Source: an uncultured delta proteobacterium (lineage in GTDB: Bacteria > Myxococcota > Myxococcia > Myxococcales > Anaeromyxobacteraceae). Taken from it: DNA of 64,000 bases. Made by a program: the position numbers and the translations under genes. Shown piece by piece: positions 16,743 through 40,919 of the stretch. Position 1 is the stretch's first letter. The number at the start of each line of letters is the position of its first letter. Location: the NCBI GenBank assembly GCA_963766715.1, contig CAVYBH010000012.1:712916-776915 (forward strand), given 5' to 3'. The notes beneath the pieces were generated by a model. That model was not told the DNA's origin, did not search any database, and saw only the letters and a program-made list of their open reading frames with translations.

Positions 16743-17816
16743 ATGTCATACCCTTTCACAGGGGACTCGATGCTCCAGACCGCCACCTTGCGCCACTTCC
16801 CCGAGCAGACCGCCGTCCTCCTGAACGCCAACGCCAAGCAGGTCAGCCCGCGCGTGCGCGAGACCCTTTCCGGTCTCGTCCCGGCGGACAACCTCTTCTT
16901 TTCCCGGGACCGCGACGACGCCCACCGGATCGCCGATGCCGTGATGTCCCGCGGCTTCGACACCGTGTTCACGGGCGGCGGCGACGGCACCTTCGTCTCC
17001 TGGGTCAATCACATCCTCGACCGGGCCGAGACCCGGGACGCGCCCGCTCCGCGCTTCGGGATCCTGGCGCTCGGCACCGGCAACGCCGTCGCCGAGATGG
17101 TGGGCGCGGGCCGGCCCGTCGACGACCTCCGCCGCCACGTCTCGGGAGAGGTCATGCCGGGCCGCCGGCTCGACCTGGTCACCTGCGACGGCCGCCGGAC
17201 GCCCTTCGCCGGCGTGGGCATCGATGCCGCGGTGCTGAACGACTACAACTGGCTGCGGACCCGGCTGGGCGCGAAGGCCGGCCGGCTGGCCGCCGGGATG
17301 CGTGGGTACAGCCTGGCCATCGCGCTCCGCTCCGCCCCGCGCCAGGTCTTCCAGCGCAAGCCGTCCTACTGCGAGATCCTGAACACCGGCGGCGCCGCCT
17401 GGCGCCTCGACCCGAACGGCGAGCGGATGGGACGCCCCATCGAGCACGGCGAGCTGCTTGTACGCCGGCCCGTGCATGCTGGCCGCCGGAAGCACGGTCC
17501 CCTACTACGGCTTCAAGCTGCGGGCCTTCCCCTTCGCGGGGCGGCGGCACGGGACGCTCCAGGTTCGCGTGGCGACGCGCATCCCGGTCCCCTCCCTCAT
17601 CCTCCACGCGCGCCAGATCTTCAGCGGCGAGTTCTCCCACCCCGGCCTGCTCGACTTCGAGGCCGACCGGGTCGAGATGTCCTTCGATCGGCCCGTCCCG
17701 TACCAGGTGGGCGGCGACGCCGAGGGCTACCGGCAGAAGCTCACGCTGGGGATCGCCCCGCGGAGCGTGGAGCTGCTCGACTTCGCCGCCGGCGCCGCCT
17801 CGCGCCCGCGGCCTAG
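16743..17816 (+). CDS. Diacylglycerol/lipid kinase family protein (indel near 17460; 3' end uncertain)
   Basis: LLNANA, GGGDGT, LALGTGNA, AGVGIDA; continuation frame has YQVGGD. Confidence 0.85.
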   Translation: MSYPFTGDSMLQTATLRHFPEQTAVLLNANAKQVSPRVRETLSGLVPADNLFFSRDRDDAHRIADAVMSRGFDTVFTGGGDGTFVSWVNHILDRAETRDAPAPRFGILALGTGNAVAEMVGAGRPVDDLRRHVSGEVMPGRRLDLVTCDGRRTPFAGVGIDAAVLNDYNWLRTRLGAKAGRLAAGMRGYSLAIALRSAPRQVFQRKPSYCEILNTGGAAWRLDPNGERMGRPIEHGELLVRRPVHAGRRKHGPLLRLQAAGLPLRGAAARDAPGSRGDAHPGPLPHPPRAPDLQRRVLPPRPARLRGRPGRDVLRSARPVPGGRRRRGLPAEAHAGDRPAERGAARLRRRRRLAPAA

Positions 17817-19470: not shown

Positions 19471-21747
<2,277 letters not shown>

Positions 21748-23011: not shown

Positions 23012-25073
23012 CTAGAAGAACCGGCGCATGAGGAGGTTCAGCCCGGCCCCGACGCCGACCGAGAAGGGAAGGACGAAGGCGGCGATGGCCATCCCGGTCT
23101 TCCATCCCCGCTCCTTCAGGATCATGAGGAAGTTGGCGATGCAGGGGATGAACAGGGTGACGGTGACGAGCGCCACGGTCACCTGGATCTCCATCACCCG
23201 GGTCATGGTCCCCGTCTCCATGTAGGGACGGTAGATCTGGAACAGCCCCGCGGCGGCGTAGTCGCGCCGCAGGAATCCCAGGATGAAGGCGCTCGCCGAC
23301 TGCTCCGGCAGCTGCAGGAGGCCGACCACCACCGGCGAGGCCGCCCGCTCCACCACGCCGAGCAGGTGGGTGCGGTCGAGCCCCCAGAGGAGCAGCGTCC
23401 CCAGCACGAAGAGGGGCAGGGCCTCGCGCAGGTACCACTCCATGCGGGCCAGCGTCTTCACCAGCACGTTGCCGAACTGGGGGACCCGCAGCGGCGGGAG
23501 CTCGAGCACGAAGTCGGAGCCGCGCCCCGGGATGACCCGCGCCGCCAGCCAGCCGACCAGGAAGAGCACGAGGACGATGACGGCGGTGAACCAGAGGGAC
23601 GCAGCCAGCGAGAGCCCGCCGAGCATGGCGAAGATGACCGCGATCTGGGCGCTGCAGGGGACGCCGAGCGCGAGCAGGAGCGTGACGATGACGCGCTCCT
23701 TGCGGGTCTCCATGATCCGGGCGGTCATGGTGGCCATGGTGTCGCAGCCCAGGCCGAGCACCATGGGGAGCACCGCCTTGCCGTTCAGCCCCATCCACTT
23801 GAAGACCTTGTTCACCATCACGGCCAGCCTCGGCAGGTACCCCGAGTCCTCGAGCACGCTGAACGAGAGGAAGAAGGTGGCCACGATGGGGAGCACGATG
23901 GCCATGCCGTAGGCGAGCCCCATGGAGACGAGCCCGTACCTCCCCACGATGAGCCCGTTGGTGTCGCGGAAGGAGAGGCCCGGGGGACCGACCAGGAAGT
24001 CCTGGACGCCGCCGGCCGGCACGAGCCAGCGCACCAGCGGCCTCGGTCCAGGGCACCAGGTACTCGTAGAAGATGGTGTTCTCGAAGAAGTCGACCGCCG
24101 TCTTGGCGCCGAACACGCCCACGAAGAGGTAGGCGATGGCGAGGACCACGAGCAGGATGGGGATCCCGTAGATCGGGTCGGTCGACCAGGCGCCGATCCG
24201 GCGGGCCAGCACGCTCCCCGCCGAGACCTTCCCGCGCGTCACCACCAGGTCGTGGAGCCGGTCGGCCGCGGCCAGGCGCTGCCGGGCGATGACGTAGCGG
24301 AGCGACTCCGGATAGCGCGCGGCGAGCGCGCGGCGGCTCTCGTCGAGCCGGGCCAGCTCCGCCTCCCCGATCCGGGAGGCCAGCCAGGGCCGGAGCGACT
24401 CGTCGCCGGCGAGCACCATGAGGGCGAGCGCGCGCCGGGACACCTTTCCCTCCGGCAGGATCGGCTCGATCCCCGCGACCGCCGCCTCGATGGCCTCGTC
24501 GTAGCGGACCCGCAGCCGGGCGGGCCGGGCCTCCGGGATGCGCTCGAGCAGGAGCGGCAGGCCGGTGCGCTGCACCGCGACGGTCGAGACCACGTCGATG
24601 CCCAGCTCGGCGGACAGCCGGTCCACGTCGATCCGGAACCCGCGGGCGGCCGCCTCGTCCGCCATGTTGAGCGCGAGGGTGAAGGGCACGCCGGCCTCGG
24701 CCAGCTGGGCGGCCAGCAGGAGCCCGCGCCGCAGGTTCTTCGCGTCGCACACCTGGAGGCAGACGTACTCCGGCTCCTTCAGGAGGATGTCCCGGGTGAC
24801 CTGCTCGTCCTCCGACATGGGCAGCAGGTTGTTCGTGCCCGGCGTGTCGAGGACGTGCCACCGCCCCCCGGAGATCTCCGCCGAGCCCCTCGTCACCTCG
24901 ACCGTCGTGCCGGGGTAGTTCGAGACCGTGACGTACTTGCCGGTCAGCGCCCCGAAGAGGACGCTCTTGCCCACGTTCGGGTTCCCGACCAGGACGAGCG
25001 TCCGGGGCGCCGCCACGATCTCCTTGTGATCGAGCGGCTCGGTTCGCGCGGCGGCGGCGGACGAACGGGTCAC
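23012..25073 (-). CDS. feoB: Ferrous iron transporter FeoB (indel near 24042)
   Basis: GNPNVGKS, NYPGTTVE, DTPG, NMAD G-domain motifs; LEDSGYLPR, GLGC, PCSA and FIPC membrane motifs. Confidence 0.95.
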
Positions 25074-26385: not shown

Positions 26386-27546
26386 CTTGACTGGCGAGCC
26401 TCCCTGCCGCACCTTGCCCCGCGATGCCCGGAGATCGACCGCGAGTTCCTTCACCGGGCCGTCCGCTGGTGCGCCGAGTCCGGCCGCCCGGCCCGCGAGG
26501 AGGACGTCCGCACCGTCCTCGAGCCCCTCGGCTGGGACGAGTTGCTGGCGGTGAAAGCCACCCTGGCCGACCCGCCCCCGGCGCGGAATCTCTCCCCCGC
26601 CGACCTGGTGGCGCTGTCCCGCAGCGGGCCCCAGCCTTCCCTCGGCCGCGAAGGACCGGGAGGCGCCCGTCCGCGCGAGCGCCGAGGAAGAAGGGGGCCC
26701 GCGCGCCCCGGCCGGCAGCCGGACCGCGAATCCGGCGGGCCCGGGACCAGGTCGCCGTCTCCCGCGCCGGGAATGGCCGCCCTCCCCCTCCTCGACGGGC
26801 TCTTCCGCGAGTCGGGGCGGGCGGAGCTCGGCCGCCTCGTCCGCCGCACGGGGGCCAATCGCATCGCCCTGCTCGCCGACCTGGCGACCCGCTGGGCCTC
26901 CGGAGCGGGAGCGCCCCCCACGAGCGACGACCTGGACCGCCTCCTCGAGCACCACGGGCTCACCCGGGGCTTCGCCGAGCGGGAGCGGGCCCTCTACCTG
27001 CACGCGGTCCGCAAGCACGGCGGCGTGATGATCCGGATGGCGCGCGAGCTGGGTGCGACGCCGGAGGACATCCGGGGCGCCATCGACCGGCTCGGCCTCC
27101 GCGCCGCGACCGACTCGGTGCGCGAGCTCCGCCGGCGGGTCCTCGATCGCAAGGCGACCCTCTCGGAACGCGCCCGCCTGCTCGACGAGGAGGCGGATGC
27201 CCTGGCCGACCTCGGGCTCCTGGCCCGCTACGAGGACGACCTCCGCCGGCGGCTGCCGGAGCACCTCCGCGCGCTCTCCGTCGGTGGGCGCAGCCCGTCG
27301 GCGGCCGACCTGGGGCGCAGCCTGTCCCTCTCCCGGAGCGCGGTGGACCGCCTGGTGCTCCGGTTCGGGCTCCGGCTCCGACCCTCCCCGGCCGGACGAG
27401 GCGAGCGGTCGGAACGCCCCGAGCAATCGGGCCGTCCCGGCGCCCCCCGGCGACCTGGACCGCGCGGCGCAGGTGCGGGCGCAGGCGCACCCCGGCGCCC
27501 ATCCGGGACGCGCCCGCCGCCCCGGGGCGGCCGCCGTCCACTTTGA
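26386..27546 (+). CDS. Hypothetical protein with Fis-like HTH segments (start uncertain)
   Basis: Protein-like composition from LDWRASLPHLAPRC; LHAVRKHGGVMIRMARELG and AADLGRSLSLSRSAVDRL look HTH-like; no in-frame start seen nearby. Confidence 0.55.
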   Translation, partial: LDWRASLPHLAPRCPEIDREFLHRAVRWCAESGRPAREEDVRTVLEPLGWDELLAVKATLADPPPARNLSPADLVALSRSGPQPSLGREGPGGARPRERRGRRGPARPGRQPDRESGGPGTRSPSPAPGMAALPLLDGLFRESGRAELGRLVRRTGANRIALLADLATRWASGAGAPPTSDDLDRLLEHHGLTRGFAERERALYLHAVRKHGGVMIRMARELGATPEDIRGAIDRLGLRAATDSVRELRRRVLDRKATLSERARLLDEEADALADLGLLARYEDDLRRRLPEHLRALSVGGRSPSAADLGRSLSLSRSAVDRLVLRFGLRLRPSPAGRGERSERPEQSGRPGAPRRPGPRGAGAGAGAPRRPSGTRPPPRGGRRPL

Positions 27547-29389: not shown

Positions 29390-30643
29390 TTGAAAGAGCA
29401 GGCTGGCGGGGAGCGCGCGCCGGAAGACGTCGCCGGGCGGACCGGGAACGGGGAGCGGACGGCTCGGAGCCGCCGATCCCGGCGTCCGCCGCGGACCGGC
29501 TCTGCGCGGAGATCCGCGACCGGGCACGCCAGCTGGCCGAGCGGGCTCGCGGCCTGGGCTCCACCGACCCTGGCGTGGCTCGCCACGCCAGGTCCCGCCT
29601 CCTCGAGGTGGACGCGGAGACCATCGCCGACCTCGCCGAGGACCTGCTCCGGGTGGGCGCGGGCCTGGCCGCCTCCGGGAGCACCTTCGACCTCCTCACC
29701 GGGAGCGTGGGCGCGGGCCCCGGGGAGCGACCGCGCATCCTGATCGCGGAGGACGACGAGGAGGAGCGCGACGCCATCGCAGCCGCCCTGGAGGTCGACT
29801 ACGAGGTCGCGGCGGTCGCGGACGGCAACCTGGCGCTGGCCTCGGCCCGCCTCGGGACCCCCGATCTCGCTGATCCTCGACCTGCGCCTTCCCGGGATGG
29901 ACGGGCTGGGCGTCCTCGATGCCATGCGTGGCGACCTGACCACCGCCGAGGTGCCGGTCATCCTCCTCTCCGGCCAGGCCGACGACGCCACGCGCGTGCG
30001 CGCGCTCGATCTCGGCGCCGCCGACTTCATCCAGAAACCCACCTCGCTCGGCGAGCTGCGCGCACGGATCGAGCGGACCCTTCGCCACGCCCGCCGCCAG
30101 ACCCACCTGCGCACGCTGGCCCAGACCGACGTCCTGACCGGGCTCGCCAATCTCCGGGCCTTCCGGATCCGTCTCGACGACGAGGTCCGCCGGGCCCGCC
30201 GGTACGGCACCTCGCTCACCTGCATCATGGCGGACATGGATCACCTGAAGCCGGTGAACGACGCCTTCGGGCACGGCGCCGGCGATCGGGCCATCGCCAA
30301 GGTGGCCGAGGTGCTGCGCTCGCAGCTTCGCGCCACCGACCTGGGCGCCCGCTACGGCGGCGACGAGTTCGTGCTCCTGCTGCCCCACACCGGCGCGGTC
30401 GACGGGAGCATCCTCGCCGAGCGCCTCTGCGCGCGCCTGGCCACCACCGAGCTCCCGGTCGGGGACCGGAAGGTATCGCTCCGCACGTCCTTCGGCGTGG
30501 CCGAGCTGGGCCCCGACGACGGGGACGACTCGGGGCTCGAGCTGGTCCGCCGGGCGGACGACGCCCTCTACGCCGCCAAGCGTTCGGGCCGCGGACGGGT
30601 CGAGGTCCAGTCCGGCCCGACCGCGGGTCCTCCGGGCAGCTGA
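29390..30643 (+). CDS. Response regulator-GGDEF diguanylate cyclase (indels near 29450 and 29868)
   Basis: RILIAEDD, LILDLRLPGMDG, GAADFIQKP (REC); TDVLTG, RATD, YGGDEF; GGAGG before TTG 29390. Confidence 0.85.
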
Positions 30644-34890: not shown

Positions 34891-35748
34891 ATGGAGAAGC
34901 GACGGTACGCGATGCGGATCGCCTACGACGGCGGCGCGTTCCGGGGCTTCCAGCGCCAGCCCGGCCTGCCCACGGTCGAGCAGGCCCTCCTCGACGCGCT
35001 CGCGCCGCTCCGGATCGCCCCGCGCCTCGAGGTGGCGGCCCGCACCGACGCCGGGGTCCACGCGCTCTCGCAGTTCGTGAGCTTCTGGGCCCGGGCGGAG
35101 CTCGAGCCCGGCGCCCTGCGGGCCGCGGTGAACCAGGGGGCGCCGCCTGGCCTCACCTGCCTCGACGCCTGGCGCGCACCGGCTTCCTTCCACGCCCGGG
35201 CGAGCGCGATCTCCCGGACGTACTTCTACCTGGTGGGGCTCGAGCCCCTGGACGGGCTCGCCGGGCGCGCCTGGCAACTCCCCGACGAGCGGGCCTTCGC
35301 CGGTGCGCGCGCGAGCCAGCTGGACCTCGGGGCCATGTCGGAGGCGCTCGCCGCGGCGGTCGGCGAGCACGACTTCGTGGGATTCGCGCGACCGGGAGAG
35401 CAGCGCGGGACGGTGCGGACGCTGCTGCGCGCCGGGGTCACGAAGGCGGACTGGGGGCCGCTCTACTGCCTCGGCCTCACCGGGCGCGGCTTCCTCCGGG
35501 CCCAGGTGCGAAACCTGGTGGGCACGGTGGTGGCGGTGGGGCTGGGACTCGCCCCCGCGTCGAAGGTCCAGGACCTCCTCCGCGCGCGGGAGCGATATCG
35601 CGGGGTGCGGGCTCCGGCGTGGGGGCTTACCCTCTCGAGGGTGGCCTACCCGCCGGAGGCCCTCCCTCTTCAGGGTGAGGCGGAGTCGCCGCTGGGAGAC
35701 GTGTCACCGTACTTGGCGAGCAGGTCCGAGACGGCCTCGCGGAGGTAG
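34891..35748 (+). CDS. truA: tRNA pseudouridine(38-40) synthase
   Basis: IAYDGGAFRGFQRQ, ARTDAGVHA, FHAR, GFLRAQVRNLVG, APAWGL. Confidence 0.93.
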   Translation: MEKRRYAMRIAYDGGAFRGFQRQPGLPTVEQALLDALAPLRIAPRLEVAARTDAGVHALSQFVSFWARAELEPGALRAAVNQGAPPGLTCLDAWRAPASFHARASAISRTYFYLVGLEPLDGLAGRAWQLPDERAFAGARASQLDLGAMSEALAAAVGEHDFVGFARPGEQRGTVRTLLRAGVTKADWGPLYCLGLTGRGFLRAQVRNLVGTVVAVGLGLAPASKVQDLLRARERYRGVRAPAWGLTLSRVAYPPEALPLQGEAESPLGDVSPYLASRSETASRR

Positions 35749-35903
35749 TCGGACTGGCGAATCCGCGTGGCGCGGGCGAGTCGCCTCAGCCGGGCCGCGA
35801 GCTCGGGCGGGAGCCGGATCAGCATGGGCTCGAGCCGCGTCGCCGATGACGCCCCCATCAGGGGGATATGGGTGATCGAACGGGTGATCTCGATGGGTCT
35901 CAT
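35670..35903 (-). CDS. Ribbon-helix-helix DNA-binding protein
   Basis: MLIRLPPELAARLRRLARATRIRQSDYLREAVSDLL, a strand-helix-helix pattern. Confidence 0.8.
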   Translation of the reverse strand: MRPIEITRSITHIPLMGASSATRLEPMLIRLPPELAARLRRLARATRIRQSDYLREAVSDLLAKYGDTSPSGDSASP

Positions 35904-35975
35904 GTAGGTTCACGCCTCCATCTGCGTACGTTTGCCTACACGCTACCACCCGATAGCCCAAAGTCAAAAAATCCA

Positions 35976-36833
35976 CTATTGACTTTTTTCGGGGACTATT
36001 CCGGCCACCTCGTTCATCCGTCCGGAGCGGAACGGCTCCAGGTCGAGCGCGGCGAGCGCGAACCCCGCGCCCCGGACGGCCGCCGCGATCTCCTTCCGGC
36101 GCGCGAACGCCACCTCCAGCTCCTCGGCCGCCACCTCGACCCGCCCCACCTCGCCGTGGTCGCGGACCCGGAACTGGCGCAGCCCGGCCGCCCGGACGCC
36201 CGCCTCGGCCTTCTCGATCCGGGCCAGCCGCTGCGGCGTCACCGGCGTTCCGTAGGGAATGCGGGACGCCAGGCAGGCCATCTGCGGCTTGTCCCAGGTG
36301 GGCAGGCCATAGGCCTCGCTCCAGGCCCGGACCTCGTCCTTCGTCAGGCCGGCCTCGGCCAGCGGCGAGCGCACCTGCCGCTCCCCGGCGGCGCGGTGTC
36401 CGGGACGGTGGTCGCGCCGGTCGTCGGCGTTGAAGCCGTCGAGCACCGCGGGGAGCCCGAGCTCGCGGGCGGACGCCTCGCAGAGCCGGTAGAGCTCGCT
36501 CTTGCAGAAGTAGCAGCGCTCCGGCGAGTTCTCGAGGTAGCGGGGGTCCTCCCCTTCCCGGCTCTCCACCTCGAGGTGGCGGGCGCCGAGCCGGGCCGCC
36601 AGGGCCCGCGCCTCGGCCCGCTCGGCCTGGGGGACGCTGGGAGAATGCGCGGTGAGGGCGACGGCGCGGTCGCCGAGGACCTCCCGCGCCACGGCCAGGA
36701 CCAGCGTCGAGTCGACGCCGGCGGAGAAGGCGACGAGCGCCCCCTCCGTGCCGCGCACGATCTCCTTCACCTGCTCGAGCCAATCGCGGGACCGCTCGCG
36801 GATCCGCGCCCGGTCCTCCTGCGTGAACGCCAT
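35976..36833 (-). CDS. larE: LarE-family ATP-dependent sulfur transferase
   Basis: PP-loop AFSAGVDS, RCYFCK, DG-N-DD--D-RPG, ACLASRIPYG, FRVRDHG. Confidence 0.92.
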   Translation of the reverse strand: MAFTQEDRARIRERSRDWLEQVKEIVRGTEGALVAFSAGVDSTLVLAVAREVLGDRAVALTAHSPSVPQAERAEARALAARLGARHLEVESREGEDPRYLENSPERCYFCKSELYRLCEASARELGLPAVLDGFNADDRRDHRPGHRAAGERQVRSPLAEAGLTKDEVRAWSEAYGLPTWDKPQMACLASRIPYGTPVTPQRLARIEKAEAGVRAAGLRQFRVRDHGEVGRVEVAAEELEVAFARRKEIAAAVRGAGFALAALDLEPFRSGRMNEVAGIVPEKSQ

Positions 36834-36842
36834 GCTGCGATT

Positions 36843-37604
36843 CTACCCGCGGCGACCCTTCGCCGCCGCCTTCGCCTTCGCGGGCGGCTTCGGGGATGGC
36901 TTGGCGGGCGCCTTCTTCGCGGGAGCCTTGGCGGGCGCCTTGGCAGGAGCCTTCGCGGGGGCCTTGGCCTCCGGCTTCTTCGCGCCCTTGGCGGGAGCGG
37001 CCACCGCGCCCTTCGCGCCGCCCCGCTTCGGGCGGAGGCCGCCGGTGAGCAGCGCGAACTCGGCCGGGGTGACGTACTTCATGTCGACGAGCTTCTGGAA
37101 GAGCCGGCCCAGCGCCGCGTCGGGCTTCTCCTGGTCGGTGCGGACGACCAGCTCGGCGTGGGTGGGCGGCTCGTACGGATCGTCGATGCCGGCGACGTTG
37201 GTGAGCTCGTGGGCCAGCGCCTTGCGGTACATGCCCTCGGTGTCGCGGGCCAGCAAGGTCTCCATGGGCGCGTCGACGAACAGCTCGACGAAGCGGCGGA
37301 CGTCGCGCCGGATGGCGTCCCGCGCGTCGCGGAACGGGGACAGGGAGGCCACCACCACCACCGCGCCGTGGCGCACCAGCATCCGGGCGACCGCCCCGAT
37401 GCGGCGCACGGCCGTGTCCCGATCCTCCTTGGACACGCCCAGGCCCCGGGTGAGGATCTCGTTCGCGGAGTCGCCGTCGATCACCTCGGCGGGACGACCG
37501 GCGGCGGCGAACCGCTTTCCGAGGTGGTTGGCGAGGGTGGTCTTTCCCGCACCCGTCATCCCGGTGAGCCAGATGACGAACCCCGCCCCTTGCGACTGAT
37601 CCAT
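36843..37604 (-). CDS. cysC: Adenylyl-sulfate kinase with Lys/Ala/Pro-rich tail
   Basis: IWLTGMTGAGKTT, DGD, ARDTEGMY, GIDDPYEPP. Confidence 0.9.
   Translation of the reverse strand: MDQSQGAGFVIWLTGMTGAGKTTLANHLGKRFAAAGRPAEVIDGDSANEILTRGLGVSKEDRDTAVRRIGAVARMLVRHGAVVVVASLSPFRDARDAIRRDVRRFVELFVDAPMETLLARDTEGMYRKALAHELTNVAGIDDPYEPPTHAELVVRTDQEKPDAALGRLFQKLVDMKYVTPAEFALLTGGLRPKRGGAKGAVAAPAKGAKKPEAKAPAKAPAKAPAKAPAKKAPAKPSPKPPAKAKAAAKGRRG
36905..36970 (-). repeat. Imperfect 12-nt coding repeat (AKAP units) in the cysC tail
   Basis: EAKAPAKAPAKAPAKAPAKKAPAK. Confidence 0.8.
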
Positions 37605-37722
37605 GCGCCCTCCCTGGTTTCACCCAACGGCGAACGCGCAATATACCGGAAGTCGCTGGAGAAAGCGCCGACTCGGGCGGGGCGCGATTTCGCTTTCCGT
37701 GCGCGCGCCTCGACGCGACGCG

Positions 37723-38177
37723 CTATCCGGTGCGGAGCCAGGCCACTGCGCGGAACGCCCCGTCCTGCCATTGAAATACCTGGATTTCCGTGACTTTTCC
37801 GGATCGGGTCCCGATCACGATCTGGTCCACGCCGCCCAGGACCGGCGCGCCGTCCAGAGCGCCTCCGCGACGTCCACCTCGGACAGGCGCGCCGCGGCGT
37901 CCACGTGGGAGTGATAGACGGCGGCGATCCGACCGCCGTCGCGCCGCAGGCGGCGGGAGAGCGCGAGGTGCGCCGCCGGGTCGGCCAGGTAGGCGCGGCG
38001 GGCGTCCCCCGGGGCCCCGGGAGCCCATTCCCGCTCGCCGGCGACGTTGCGGGCGGGCACCACCTCCACCTCCCCATCCGGGGCGACCGTGACGAAGCCG
38101 CACACCTCCCGGGCCGGATTGGCCTCCGCGAGGGCGACGAGCCGGGCGGCGACGGGCGCGTAATCGACGGCGGCCAC
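37723..38177 (-). CDS. JAB/JAMM (M67) metalloprotease (indel near 37856)
   Basis: EVCG...HSH-x7-S-x2-D (HSHVDAAARLSEVD); C-terminus continues in the 37723..38103 frame. Confidence 0.9.
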
Positions 38178-38190
38178 GCCGGGGCGCCGA

Positions 38191-38892
38191 TCAGGGGAAG
38201 GCCGGCGCGGAGGCCGGGGCGTTGCAGGCGCAGCCGGCCTGGCGCGCCGTGGCCCGGGTCAGCGGCGTGCCGCGAAAGATCTCGATCCGCCGGTTGCGGG
38301 GCTCCTGCGCGGTGCCCGAGAGGAGCAGGACGAGCTCCAGGGCGGCGAGTGCACCGACCGTGGCAGCGCCCTCCGGGGTCGGCGGGGCGCCGAGCCCCGG
38401 GCGCGTCGCACAGGCGTAGCAGGGCGCGCCGGTAGGGACCGTCGTCGCGGCACCGCCTTGCCCGTCGACGTCCGCCACCACATGGGGGAGTTGCAGGAGC
38501 CTCGCCTCCTCGGCGATGGCCCTCGACACCTCCGCGGTGGCACCGCAGACGAGGAGCGCCGTGGGGCGTGACCCGGGGCGGAACACCTCGACCTTCACGA
38601 GCGAGCTCGCCGCCGCTGCGAACTCGGCAGAGGCCGCTCCCCGGGGGCGGCCGACCTCGGCTGGCCCGAGCGCCCACCCCGCGCCGTCGCCCGCCGCGAC
38701 CGCGTCGGGGTCGTCGAGCCAGACCGTACCCACGCCGGCGGCCGCGAGGTAGTAGAGGGCCGGAACGGTGGCGAGCCCGCCGCCGACCACGCGCACGCGT
38801 GCGCCTCGAAGTCGCTCCTGCGCCTCCTCTCCCATGCCGGGGAGGATCAGCTGCCGGGCGTACCGAGCCACCTCGGCTTCGTTCAGGGCCAT
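38191..38892 (-). CDS. ThiF/MoeB-like protein with degenerate active site
   Basis: [20 protein letters not shown]-terminus and [12 protein letters not shown]; lacks GxGxxG, SNLxRQ and the catalytic Cys. Confidence 0.85.
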
Positions 38893-39158
38893 GTCCGCTC
38901 CTCCGCCAAGGGGCCCCGCTCCAGCCAGGCCCTCCACGTTCCCTCGCCCTCCTCCGGCGCAGCCTCGAGGCGGAGCACCCGGTGCCCATCCTCCGCCGCG
39001 CTCCGGGGCACGTTCTCGCGAGGCTCCCCCTCCCTCAGCAGCACCTCGAGGACCTCTCCCTCGTGGAGCCGCCCCAGGGCGATCCGGGCCTTCACCCAGG
39101 TCAGCGGGCAGGCGTGGGGACGGATGTCGATCCGCGCGGCCGGCACGCGGTCGGTCAT
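38883..39158 (-). CDS. TusA/SirA-family sulfur carrier
   Basis: [32 protein letters not shown]...[14 protein letters not shown] overlaps the upstream stop. Confidence 0.9.
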
Positions 39159-39863
39159 CCCGGCTCCTGCGTCGCGCCGGCGAGCGCGCTGCAGACCGGG
39201 CAGCCGGGCCGGACGCGCAGCGGGACGAGCCGCGTGCGCCCCGAACGACCGTCGAAGGTCACGAGCCGCCCGGCGTAGGCGCCCCGCTCGCCCGCGAGCA
39301 GGCGGAGGGCCTCGGCGCCCATCAGGCCGCCCGCGAAGCCCGCCAGCGCCCCCAGCACGCCGGCCTGTGCGCAGGTGGGAACCGTCCCCTCGGCGGGCGG
39401 CGCCTCGAAGAGGCAGCGCAGGCACCCGGTCTTGCCGGGCATGACGGTCAGGAACTGGGCCGAGTAGCGCAGCACGCCGCCGTGCACGAGCGGCCGCCGC
39501 GCCGTGAGCGCGGTGTCGTTGGCGAGGAAGCGCGTGGAGAAGTTGTCCGACGCGTCCACGACCACGTCCACGCCCTGCACGAGGGCCGAGGCGTTGTCCG
39601 GGCCGAAGCGCGCGTCGTGCGCCTCGACCTTCACCGCGGGGTGGAGCCGCGCCAGCCGGGCTCGCCGCGGCCGCGGCCTTGCGCCGCCCCAGGTCGGCCT
39701 CGCCGAAGAGCGGCTGCCGGTTCAGGTTGGAGGTCTCCACGGCGTCCTCGTCGACGAGCACGAGACGTCCCACCCCGGCCGCCGCGAGCGCCAGCGCCGC
39801 CGGCCCCCCCAGGCCGCCCACGCCGATCAGGAGCGCGCTCTTTTCCGACGGCGATACGCCCAT
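39155..39863 (-). CDS. ThiF/MoeB E1-like adenylyltransferase (indel near 39661)
   Basis: [43 protein letters not shown]. Confidence 0.92.
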
Positions 39864-39895
39864 GCCACCTCCGTGATCCGACCGATCCTTCTATC

Positions 39896-40267
39896 TCAGA
39901 ACCCGACGACGTGCCCCTCGGAGGCGCCCCGCCACTGCTCGGGGAGGCTGCGAACCGCGTCGAGCCGGGGACGCGCCGACTCGGGGTCGAGGCCGACGAG
40001 GCGGAGCTCCGTGTCGCAGGCCACGACCTCGATGCCCAGGTCCCGCCTCCCCTCCTCGAGGAGCAACGTGAGCGAGCCGACACGGGCCGCGTCTGCGCCG
40101 GCGGGCATCCCGTCGTCGAAGCGCCCCTCGATCCAGGCGCGCAGCGGCTCCCCGGAGAGCGCGACCACGACGGGGTGACCGAAGGCGCCCGCGGTGAGGG
40201 CCAGCGAGACGGCCCGGCGCCTTGCGTTCCAGCCAGCGCCGTCGAGCAGGATCAGGCACGGCTTCAT
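39896..40267 (-). CDS. DsrE/DsrF-like protein
   Basis: Alpha/beta pattern with GIEVVACDT; GGAGG RBS; first gene of the sulfur cluster. Confidence 0.65.
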   Translation of the reverse strand: MKPCLILLDGAGWNARRRAVSLALTAGAFGHPVVVALSGEPLRAWIEGRFDDGMPAGADAARVGSLTLLLEEGRRDLGIEVVACDTELRLVGLDPESARPRLDAVRSLPEQWRGASEGHVVGF

Positions 40268-40359
40268 CGCGTCATCCTCCCGCTGGCCGGTGCCACGTCC
40301 GTCGTCCGGACCTGCTTGCGCCCCGGGCGACCGTCTGCTAGAAACCGACCCGCTTTCTC

Positions 40360-40444
40360 GCCCAGGTGGTGGAACTGGTAGACACACCATCTTGAGGGGG
40401 TGGCGCCGTAAGGCGTGCGAGTTCGAATCTCGCCCTGGGCACCA
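40360..40444 (+). tRNA. tRNA-Leu (GAG)
   Basis: GCCCAGG...TTGAGGG loop, variable arm, GCGAG-TTCGAAT-CTCGC, CCTGGGCACCA. Confidence 0.97.
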
Positions 40445-40462
40445 GAATCGTAGAAAACAAGA

Positions 40463-40493
40463 AAGGGACCCGGCGACGGGTCCCTTCTCTTTT
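40463..40493. terminator. Intrinsic terminator between convergent tRNA-Leu and secG
   Basis: AAGGGACCCG-GCGA-CGGGTCCCTT with T-rich tracts on both strands. Confidence 0.8.
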
Positions 40494-40514
40494 CCGGGCG
40501 GCGGAGCGCCGCCG

Positions 40515-40919
40515 CTACCACTTCGGGGGGGCCTGGACCGGCTGCCCGGGCGCAGGCTGCGCCGGCGACGTCTGGGCGGGCCCGGGGGCTCCGGGAGGCG
40601 GGAGCGTCTCGAGGACGCGCGAGCCGGGCTGGGGCGCGCCCATCGGAGCCGGAGCGCTGATCGGCGACGGCGCCTCCTTCACCACCGAACCGGAACGGGT
40701 CGACAGGTAGGAGAGCGACAGCGACGTGAGCATGAAGACCGCGGCCGCGGCCGAGGTCACCTTGCCGAGGAACGTCTGCGCTCCCCGTCCGCCGAACACG
40801 GCCGACGAGCTGCCTCCGAAGGCGCCGCCCAGGCCGCCTCCCTTGCCTGCCTGAAGCAGGATGACGAGGACGAGGACCGCGGAGACGACGACGTGGACGA
40901 TGATGAGGAACGTGTTCAA
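40515..40919 (-). CDS. secG: Preprotein translocase SecG
   Basis: [18 protein letters not shown]...FLGKVT; TTG overlaps the tpiA stop. Confidence 0.93.

Follow-up and report, generated by a model that had tools for sequence, protein, structure and literature searches.

A candidate protein-thiocarboxylate relay linked to LarE in an uncultured member of the Anaeromyxobacteraceae

Genes for sulfur-carrying proteins stand beside the gene for the sulfur insertase LarE in an operon of an uncultured member of the Anaeromyxobacteraceae, which raises the question of what such an operon delivers and to which acceptor. The operon lies in a 64,000-nucleotide stretch of DNA (the window; G000:C12:712916-776915, that is, contig C12 of genome G000), in an assembly of 18 contigs that is 84.6% complete and has about 72% G+C. 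On the minus strand, from 40267 to 35976, seven co-directional genes encode a DsrE-like protein, a ThiF/MoeB-type adenylating enzyme (E1-A), a TusA/SirA-type sulfur carrier, a degenerate ThiF-family protein (E1-B), a JAB/JAMM metallopeptidase, a P-loop protein resembling adenylylsulfate (APS) kinase (here CysC-like) and LarE, and a ribbon-helix-helix (RHH) gene follows LarE as the eighth. A preliminary description made from the sequence had offered two proposals for these genes, namely a sulfur-delivery pathway ending in LarE, or a conjugation/deconjugation system whose carrier is encoded elsewhere.

We consider it possible, at roughly 40%, that the operon is a protein-thiocarboxylate relay serving LarE along with other acceptors, its carrier coming in this genus from a gene outside the operon, because a full operon with the carrier ThiS is found in relatives, pathways of a similar logic are known (row 4a of PMC1779556; this and the other papers given by accession are cited from excerpts), and LarE of the [4Fe-4S] type takes protein-bound sulfur. 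In such a relay, E1-A and E1-B would pair as a heterodimer and adenylate a ThiS/CysO-like carrier at its C-terminal Gly-Gly, and a persulfide would be passed from the DsrE-like protein to TusA, which would replace the rhodanese domain of MoeZ-type E1s and turn the adenylate into a thiocarboxylate. JAB might release or recycle the carrier, and the carrier thiocarboxylate would donate its sulfur to the open iron of the LarE cluster, as TtuB does to TtuA, after which LarE would make the dithiocarboxylated pincer precursor. The carrier acting in trans could be an orphan ubiquitin-like protein (Ubl) encoded on contig C14, or the MoaD released from a MoaD-MoaE fusion.

Several points weigh against this relay, whose steps are drawn from sequence and gene context. 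The operon of the Anaeromyxobacteraceae has no carrier gene, no ThiS/MoaD open reading frame (ORF) being found in 35976-40267, and the orphan Ubl occurs in only about seven of 14 genus genomes and was not found in G009, G010 and G013, which are 98-99% complete. A separate MoeZ-type rhodanese E1 in the genome could serve Ubls. In two genomes, G005 (95% complete) and G015 (96%), neither LarE nor LarC is found, although E1-A, E1-B and the CysC-like gene are retained. Moreover, clusters with a PALP gene resemble plain CysO-CysM-Mec cysteine synthesis, the assembly shows a broken frame in both E1-A and JAB, and the arginine finger of ThiF and MoeB was reported to be non-essential (PMC13139853).

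The operon in relatives and its carrier

Synteny of the 4.3-kb cluster extends to 10 relatives in the genus and family, and operons of this kind occur throughout Myxococcota, the present one being the version of the Anaeromyxobacteraceae. Comparison farther out covered 12 distant loci from the same order and, as a separate set, the best 80 LarE loci from a search of genome contigs. The CysC-like gene adjoins LarE in all 12 distant loci, nine of which have E1-A, and it lies directly upstream of LarE in 10 of the best 80, four of these 10 belonging to metagenome-assembled genomes (MAGs), three of them with PALP. Anaeromyxobacter terrae has the order DsrE-E1A-TusA-E1B-CysC-LarE-RHH; G023, Corallococcus and Myxococcus dinghuensis have E1A-TusA-ThiS-E1B-JAB-CysC-like-LarE; and Archangium, two Cystobacter and G030 have ThiS-JAB-CysC-like-LarE. 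JAB is absent from the operon in G016 and G017. In other families of Myxococcota a CysO-like ThiS, sometimes with a PALP, stands between TusA/E1-A and JAB; among the distant loci ThiS is inside the operon in three (G023, G025 and G030) and PALP in two (G025 and G026). The in-operon ThiS proteins are CysO-like, and of the 11 listed nine end in AGG, one in AGGC and the actinobacterial one in AGGADSVT.

It is likely that the carrier gene has left the operon in this genus, and the combination seen in Anaeromyxobacteraceae, a lost carrier and a gained DsrE-like gene, appears to be new. The preliminary description had reported no ThiS/MoaD-like ORF ending in GG in the cluster, which was confirmed, all ThiS-family matches lying elsewhere. 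Its suggestion of a carrier encoded elsewhere fits the GG-ending ThiS inside the operon in other families and the orphan relative on C14. It had also named two observations that would reduce the locus to a remnant of a known pathway, of which a ThiS and PALP cassette does occur in relatives, whereas a loss of the cysC/larE adjacency is contradicted by the distant loci and by the 10 further loci. The Myxococcota-wide operon joins LarE to a putative E1/Ubl/TusA/JAB relay, and the sulfur-donor candidates that it names are open to test in cultures of Myxococcus or Anaeromyxobacter.

The PALP genes bear on the main rival, which is doubtful on present evidence: a worn-down cysteine or sulfur-assimilation operon of the CysO-CysM-Mec or 4e type, in which the thiocarboxylate would serve cysteine or homocysteine synthesis through PALP or MetY elsewhere, and LarE would be co-regulated and use cysteine-derived sulfur. 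Consistent with this are a cysteine-synthase-type PALP within the operons of G025 and G026 and of the MAG loci L051, L052 and L055, the PALP directly upstream of LarE in seven of the best 80 LarE loci, all outside Myxococcota and three preceded by an Rrf2 regulator gene, the relay genes without LarE in G005 and G015, and three PALP matches and a MetY-MoeZ-PALP locus in G000 itself; such operons also occur in rows 4c-4e of PMC1779556. The operon of the Anaeromyxobacteraceae, however, has neither PALP nor carrier, the named Myxococcaceae and Archangiaceae have ThiS-JAB-CysC-like-LarE without PALP, and the genes for sulfate activation, from which 4e operons take their meaning, were not found in 12 of 13 congeners. 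As side observations, the Rrf2-PALP-LarE loci (L062, L093 and L101) are from Geobacterales-type MAGs, PALP-LarE pairs were seen among L053, L061, L064 and L108, the last of which has LarE-MnmA, and one Actinomycetota MAG has PALP-ThiS-LarE, a recurrence of ThiS beside LarE that favors the thiocarboxylate relay.

In Mycobacterium tuberculosis, CysO, CysM and Mec act with MoeZ as a system of E1, Ubl, JAMM peptidase and PALP. The same logic is seen in the Myxococcota loci L016, L051, L052 and L055, with a CysO-like carrier, whereas CysO and CysM are absent from the window operon, a free TusA takes the place of rhodanese, and the E1 is a protein pair. CysO-CysM-Mec operons make up row 4d in the paper by Iyer, Burroughs and Aravind (2006), who predicted that SirA replaces rhodanese in Ubl/JAB/E1 operons (PMC1779556). 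In rows 4e/4c of the same paper, as excerpted, a rhodanese-less E1, SirA/TusA, JAB and an adenylylsulfate-kinase homologue stand together as they do here, and relatives of the present operon further share a ThiS-like carrier and cysteine synthase with these rows. The window operon differs from them in that carrier, ATP sulfurylase, PAPS (3'-phosphoadenylylsulfate) reductase and sulfite reductase are absent, the kinase homologue is without canonical acceptor-site residues, two E1 proteins, one active and one degenerate, stand in for a single one, and LarE, the DsrE-like protein and RHH are added; none of those three sulfate-reduction enzymes was found in 12 of 13 congeners. The type of operon is already known, the present one being derived from the Ubl/JAB/E1/SirA sulfur operons of rows 4c-4e.

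The ThiS-family genes of the genome, on C12 (122663), C13 and C14, are thiS beside thiG, a MoaD-MoaE fusion and the orphan Ubl. The orphan Ubl (G000:C14:63664-63921; L036:5668-5922) is a CysO-like protein of 85 aa that ends in SGG, and its best Myxococcaceae matches, at 40% identity, are the in-operon ThiS genes. It was rejected as an obligatory carrier because roughly half of the genus genomes yielded no copy. Immediately upstream of the gene lies one for a protein of 411 aa that matches a Sortilin/BNR-type repeat weakly.

The MoaD-MoaE fusion (…VSGG/AGRF…) lies in a frame at G000:C13:136826-139366, with the MoaD part at 138725-138952, and the same 228-nt match recurs in long frames across the genus. 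Such a fusion would need a JAMM peptidase, for which the operon JAB is the only strong candidate; it is the sole strong Prok-JAB match in each of 14 genus genomes. These matches are what would favor a molybdopterin branch, in which JAB cleaves MoaD-MoaE, and E1-A/E1-B with TusA thiocarboxylate the freed MoaD, and DR0402 is known to cleave such a fusion in Deinococcus (PMC8832034). We regard this branch as improbable: family members without an operon JAB carry a JAB elsewhere (in G014 and G016 on a contig that also has a ThiS gene), the operons of the Myxococcaceae include a CysO-like carrier of their own, the genome also has a canonical MoeZ-type E1, and no molybdenum-cofactor genes lie nearby. 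That E1 (ThiF plus rhodanese, 389 aa) is encoded with a MetY-like protein (Cys_Met_Meta_PP) and an opposite-strand PALP at G000:C13:270773-274345 (L035:3773-7345), which is a second, conventional locus of the thiocarboxylate type. As for the proposed conjugation/deconjugation system, nothing points to Ubl conjugation, no E2-like gene being seen in the cluster, and this proposal was abandoned.

The E1 pair and the sulfur-carrying proteins

The thiocarboxylate relay would depend on two E1-type proteins with complementary features. E1-A conserves DxD, SNLNRQ, K, DxxD, two CxxC and the Cys of PTCAQAG, which are the adenylation, zinc and loop-Cys features, and is without the N-terminal RYxRQ arginine-finger helix; it aligns to residues 25-245 of ThiF (1zud) and 30-248 of MoeB, its start being equivalent to ThiF residue 25 or MoeB residue 30. 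E1-B opens with a RYARQ helix, aligns from residue 2-3 to Uba4, ThiF, MoeB and SAE1 (SAE1 match, E 1.7e-6), and is without the GxGxxG Gly-rich loop and SNLxRQ. Among 12 E1-B homologues of 127-233 aa only R10, R13, L17, G21, L49 and G53 are invariant, and the ratio of nonsynonymous to synonymous substitution (dN/dS) of E1-B within the genus is 0.15-0.26. Judged by these motifs, E1-A is predicted to be catalytically complete and E1-B to be a degenerate, helix-bearing partner. In ThiF and MoeB, Arg11 and Arg14, respectively, reach into the ATP site of the neighbouring subunit (PMC13139853).

A likewise unequal pairing of one adenylating subunit with one degenerate, helix-bearing subunit is found in SAE1-SAE2, APPBP1-UBA3 and yeast Tcd1-Tcd2 (PMC13139853). 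By contrast with these heterodimeric E1s, E1-A and E1-B are bacterial, measure about 235 aa each, and have no UFD/Cys domain and no E2, and their pairing is a prediction. The active/degenerate split of the E1 appears to be new, and the literature search returned no paper describing a split E1. E1-A/E1-B might represent a simple bacterial candidate for the origin of heterodimeric E1s with one dead subunit.

A second pair, E1A'-E1B', is present at G000:C8:616893-618222 (L034:5864-7238) and was seen in none of the other 13 genus genomes. Its E1A' is frame-split and without SNLxRQ and the loop Cys, and the pair adjoins, as judged by eye, an ECF-sigma-like gene and multicopper-oxidase-like ORFs.

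Both a sulfurtransferase partner (TusA, PF01206) and a JAMM peptidase (Prok-JAB, motif intact) accompany the E1 pair. The Cys-Pro of TusA is invariant in 20 of 20 sequences, and TusA is tied to the E1 by a natural E1-A-TusA fusion in G019 (L015:6332-7216; ThiF 2-218 plus TusA 225-293). The conserved C-terminal WP of TusA was considered as an E1 substrate and set aside, as it coincides with the overlapping E1-B start codon.

The DsrE-like protein matches neither PF02635 nor any other Pfam or NCBIfam model. Its AlphaFold2 model (pLDDT 94.7) retrieved 2qs7, a DsrE/DsrF-like protein (TMq 0.87), 3pnx, DsrE 2hy5_A of DsrEFH, TusD 2d1p_A and YchN with Foldseek, and the protein is predicted from this model to have a DsrE fold. 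Cys84, in the VVAC motif, is invariant in 23 of 23 aligned homologues, which are labelled Anaeromyxobacteraceae proteins or 'predicted peroxiredoxin' in the source records. A DsrE-like gene at the operon head is found solely in the Anaeromyxobacteraceae (family f1).

LarE and the CysC-like protein

LarE scores 307.9 bits against TIGR00268 (cut-off 150), and its PP-loop FSAGVDS is present, with S37, G39, D41 and S42 invariant. Cys107, Cys110 and Cys187 are invariant in eight of eight sequences; the CxxC sits where L. plantarum LarE has W..A, and the Cys spacing equals that of C92/C95/C172 in T. maritima LarE (PMC9283937). By these residues the protein belongs to the three-Cys, predicted [4Fe-4S] type. 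The T. maritima enzyme takes sulfane sulfur from a protein persulfide and not from Na2S, its authors draw the parallel to TtuA-TtuB, and in the excerpted text IscS persulfide is the only sulfur donor shown to work in vitro for a [4Fe-4S] LarE (PMC9283937). The in vivo sulfur donor of this common LarE type is undefined in the literature as excerpted there, and the proposed relay names concrete candidates.

Direct transfer from IscS persulfide to the T. maritima enzyme (PMC9283937) is also what a persulfide-only explanation would build on, in which the DsrE-like protein and TusA give sulfane sulfur directly to the LarE cluster, and the E1 proteins and the CysC-like protein do another job that is independent of a carrier. 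The Anaeromyxobacteraceae lost ThiS and gained the DsrE-like protein, and G015 keeps a minimal set of E1A-E1B-CysC-like-RHH without TusA or JAB, both of which agree with such a division. Nevertheless, it seems decidedly unlikely, given that E1-A retains every Ubl-adenylating feature, including the loop Cys and zinc site, and that no Ubl-independent reaction of the ThiF/MoeB type fits the gene context.

For a thiocarboxylate relay into LarE, two known systems provide models. In Thermus, tRNA 2-thiolation by TtuA-TtuB-TtuC uses a three-Cys [4Fe-4S] PP-loop ATPase fed by an E1-made Ubl thiocarboxylate (PMC9283937), whereas the LarE substrate is a pyridinium mononucleotide and not tRNA, and no TtuB-like gene is in the operon. 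In the pathways of pyridine dithiocarboxylate (PDTC) and quinolobactin (PdtF/G/H/J and QbsC/D/E), which form row 4a of PMC1779556 and convert pyridine/quinoline carboxylates to thiocarboxylates, a carboxylate-adenylating enzyme stands beside E1, Ubl and JAB, and the product of LarE is also a pyridine dithiocarboxylate. The adenylating enzyme here differs in being the PP-loop LarE with a predicted [4Fe-4S] cluster and not an AMP-acid ligase, a cofactor is made instead of a siderophore, and transfer of sulfur from the carrier to LarE is proposed by analogy.

The window holds no larA, larB or larC, as the preliminary description had stated, and family matches are present on C8, C11 and C12:170277. 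LarC (428 bits) lies at C11:71670-72791 with an AIRC (LarB-like) match just upstream, a LarA homologue is on C8, the further Lar-family match at C12:170277 is outside the window, and the genome has a single LarE. A role of LarE outside the nickel-pincer cofactor, as might follow from a LarE without LarABC, was therefore rejected, LarE also tracking LarC: both are present in 26 of 31 genomes and both were not found in three (G005, G015 and G028), and G006 and G007, at 70-74% completeness, are the only genomes with one and not the other. LarA (Lar_N) was not found in G008 (94% complete) and G010 (99%), which have LarE and LarC, and the cofactor may serve a non-LarA enzyme in these two genomes.

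The proposed pathway ending in LarE is plausible from the ThiS-JAB-CysC-like-LarE unit, the three-Cys LarE and the co-occurrence of LarE with LarC, but is not the whole story. In G005, the DsrE-like, E1-A, TusA, E1-B, JAB and CysC-like genes are all full-length matches, and no LarE lies between the CysC-like gene and RHH; in G015, E1-A, E1-B, the CysC-like gene and RHH are in succession, with no TusA, JAB or LarE. The E1 pair and the CysC-like protein have a LarE-independent role, because these genomes lost LarE and LarC and retain the E1 genes and the CysC-like gene.

The identification of an APS kinase in the preliminary description agrees with one of two NCBIfam models and disagrees at the canonical acceptor-site residues. 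The CysC-like protein scores 172 bits against TIGR00455, above the cut-off of 138.7, and 206 against NF002059, below the cut-off of 244. Three residues that we take to bind APS (Arg in DGDxxR, Phe in GLGF, Asn in TNIRR) are absent in 31 of 31 cluster-linked copies (N, V and A stand at these positions here) and kept in both Sat/CysH-linked CysC copies, from the relatives G003 and G017, and in the best PDB kinases among the matches listed, whose motifs read DGDxxR, GLGF/GAGF and FTG/LTG. The P-loop Lys and the Ser of ISP are present in all 31 cluster-linked copies and the second Asp of DGD in 17. Neither ATP sulfurylase (PF01747) nor PAPS reductase (PF01507) was found in the window's own genome (84.6% complete), and among 13 congeners, several of them 95-99% complete, only G003 has both, G009 having just a 28.5-bit ATP-sulfurylase fragment.

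With the acceptor residues gone and these two enzymes not found, the gene is by its sequence features an orphan APS-kinase-like paralogue and presumably not a normal APS kinase. The idea of a CysC serving sulfate assimilation was rejected on the same grounds. The conserved joining of LarE to a kinase-like protein without canonical acceptor residues appears to be new; the literature search found no paper pairing LarE with APS kinase, adenylylsulfate kinase or CysC, and none describing such a link of LarE with ThiS/thiocarboxylate, TusA, JAMM or ThiF. Genome annotation will go on mislabelling the 'APS kinase' beside LarE, a conserved P-loop protein, as CysC. It carries a histone-H1-like C-terminal tail of about 70 aa (36843-37060), whose length varies among relatives (proteins of 237-503 aa), and the protein of G022 has a 270-aa N-terminal extension without a Pfam match.

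A more elaborate version of the relay, which we hold at long odds, would have the thiocarboxylate made by the heterodimeric E1 as the physiological sulfur donor of [4Fe-4S] LarE in Myxococcota, and the former APS kinase phosphorylating, in place of APS, the 3'-OH of an adenosine-bearing (adenylated or dinucleotide) pincer intermediate. If true, it would add to the biosynthesis of the nickel-pincer cofactor a step or variant not seen before.

Frame breaks and gene layout

E1-A has one extra base near 39658-39662, where five of five aligned relatives are one base shorter, and ThiF profile positions 21-82 and 80-237 sit in separate frames (80 + 128 bits). JAB has one base missing near 37857-37866; its first frame covers positions 2-91 of the 114 of the Prok-JAB profile, and a second frame is matched by the final 44 residues of JAB from a relative. 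Each gene is a single intact ORF in nine of nine congeners. Over 60 kb of synteny with G008 and G012, a tblastn scan flagged frame breaks in all three genomes and in differing places: about 6-9 for the window, 4-6 for G008 and 5-7 for G012. Where query ranges overlap, some of the flags may be artefacts that stem from stop-to-stop ORFs. G000, G008 and G012 are all low-contig assemblies. Because congeners are intact and breaks are scattered in low-contig assemblies, the E1-A and JAB breaks are read as very probable assembly indels.

That the operon is instead decaying in this organism, with real frameshifts and with E1-A and JAB as pseudogenes, is very unlikely. Two frame breaks do fall inside 2 kb, and the degenerate E1A'-E1B' pair on C8 is frame-split too, but the comparable number of breaks over the 64 kb of the window and elsewhere in G008 and G012, the single-base nature of each break, and the intact genes of the congeners, with dN/dS well below 1, argue against decay. 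The scattered breaks look like the indel error typical of low-contig (long-read) MAGs, and such errors will split many gene calls across the G000 genome. Other apparent breaks relative to G008 and/or G012, in genes that are otherwise conserved, are at about 17,460-17,540, 21,160-21,200, 24,040-24,470, 27,420-27,510 and 29,855-29,871, and there are more.

Genes were called from third-position G+C and ORF analysis together with Pfam and NCBIfam profiles, and the features are collected in Table 1. The seven co-directional genes of the preliminary description were recovered, as were its overlapping junctions, which measure 4 nt for E1-A/TusA and 10 nt for TusA/E1-B, and the VVAC, CPLT and JAMM (E...HSH-x7-S-x2-D) motifs are all present. 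LarE starts 9 nt after the CysC-like stop, and a gap of about 118 nt separates JAB from the CysC-like gene. All eight genes are under purifying selection within the genus (dN/dS 0.09-0.50), JAB being the loosest.

Table 1. Features of the operon and its upstream boundary, in window coordinates.
Feature	Position	Strand	Remarks
DsrE-like	39896..40267	-	123 aa; no Pfam/NCBIfam match; VVAC motif
E1-A	39155..39863	-	ThiF/MoeB-type adenylating enzyme; ThiF profile; split by frame break
TusA/SirA-type sulfur carrier	38883..39158	-	91 aa; PF01206, 1.7e-15; CPLT motif
E1-B	38191..38892	-	Degenerate ThiF-family protein; ThiF 56 bits over profile 1-230
JAB/JAMM metallopeptidase	37723..38177	-	Prok-JAB PF14464; split by frame break
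APS-kinase-like P-loop protein	36843..37604	-	PF01583 155 bits; Lys/Ala/Pro-rich C-terminal tail
LarE, PP-loop sulfur insertase, three-Cys type	35976..36833	-	TIGR00268 308 bits
RHH (ribbon-helix-helix) protein	35670..35903	-	77 aa; RHH_3, 3.1e-16
tRNA-Leu(GAG)	40360..40444	+	ARAGORN; Rfam tRNA 48 bits; between secG and operon

The tRNA gene, on the opposite strand, marks the upstream boundary of the operon, with tpiA and secG beyond. A scan for sigma-70-like promoters returned none, the terminator-like hairpins lie only after secG (40462-40487), and an RNA-family scan of 35400-40700 at E <= 1 found the tRNA only and no riboswitch. A small RHH_3 gene stays behind LarE across the order, as seen in L011, L012, L013, L018, L019, L020, L022 and L045, and the RHH gene is retained in G005 and G015 despite the missing LarE. 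The RHH protein, kept even where LarE is deleted, may be a regulator of the operon.

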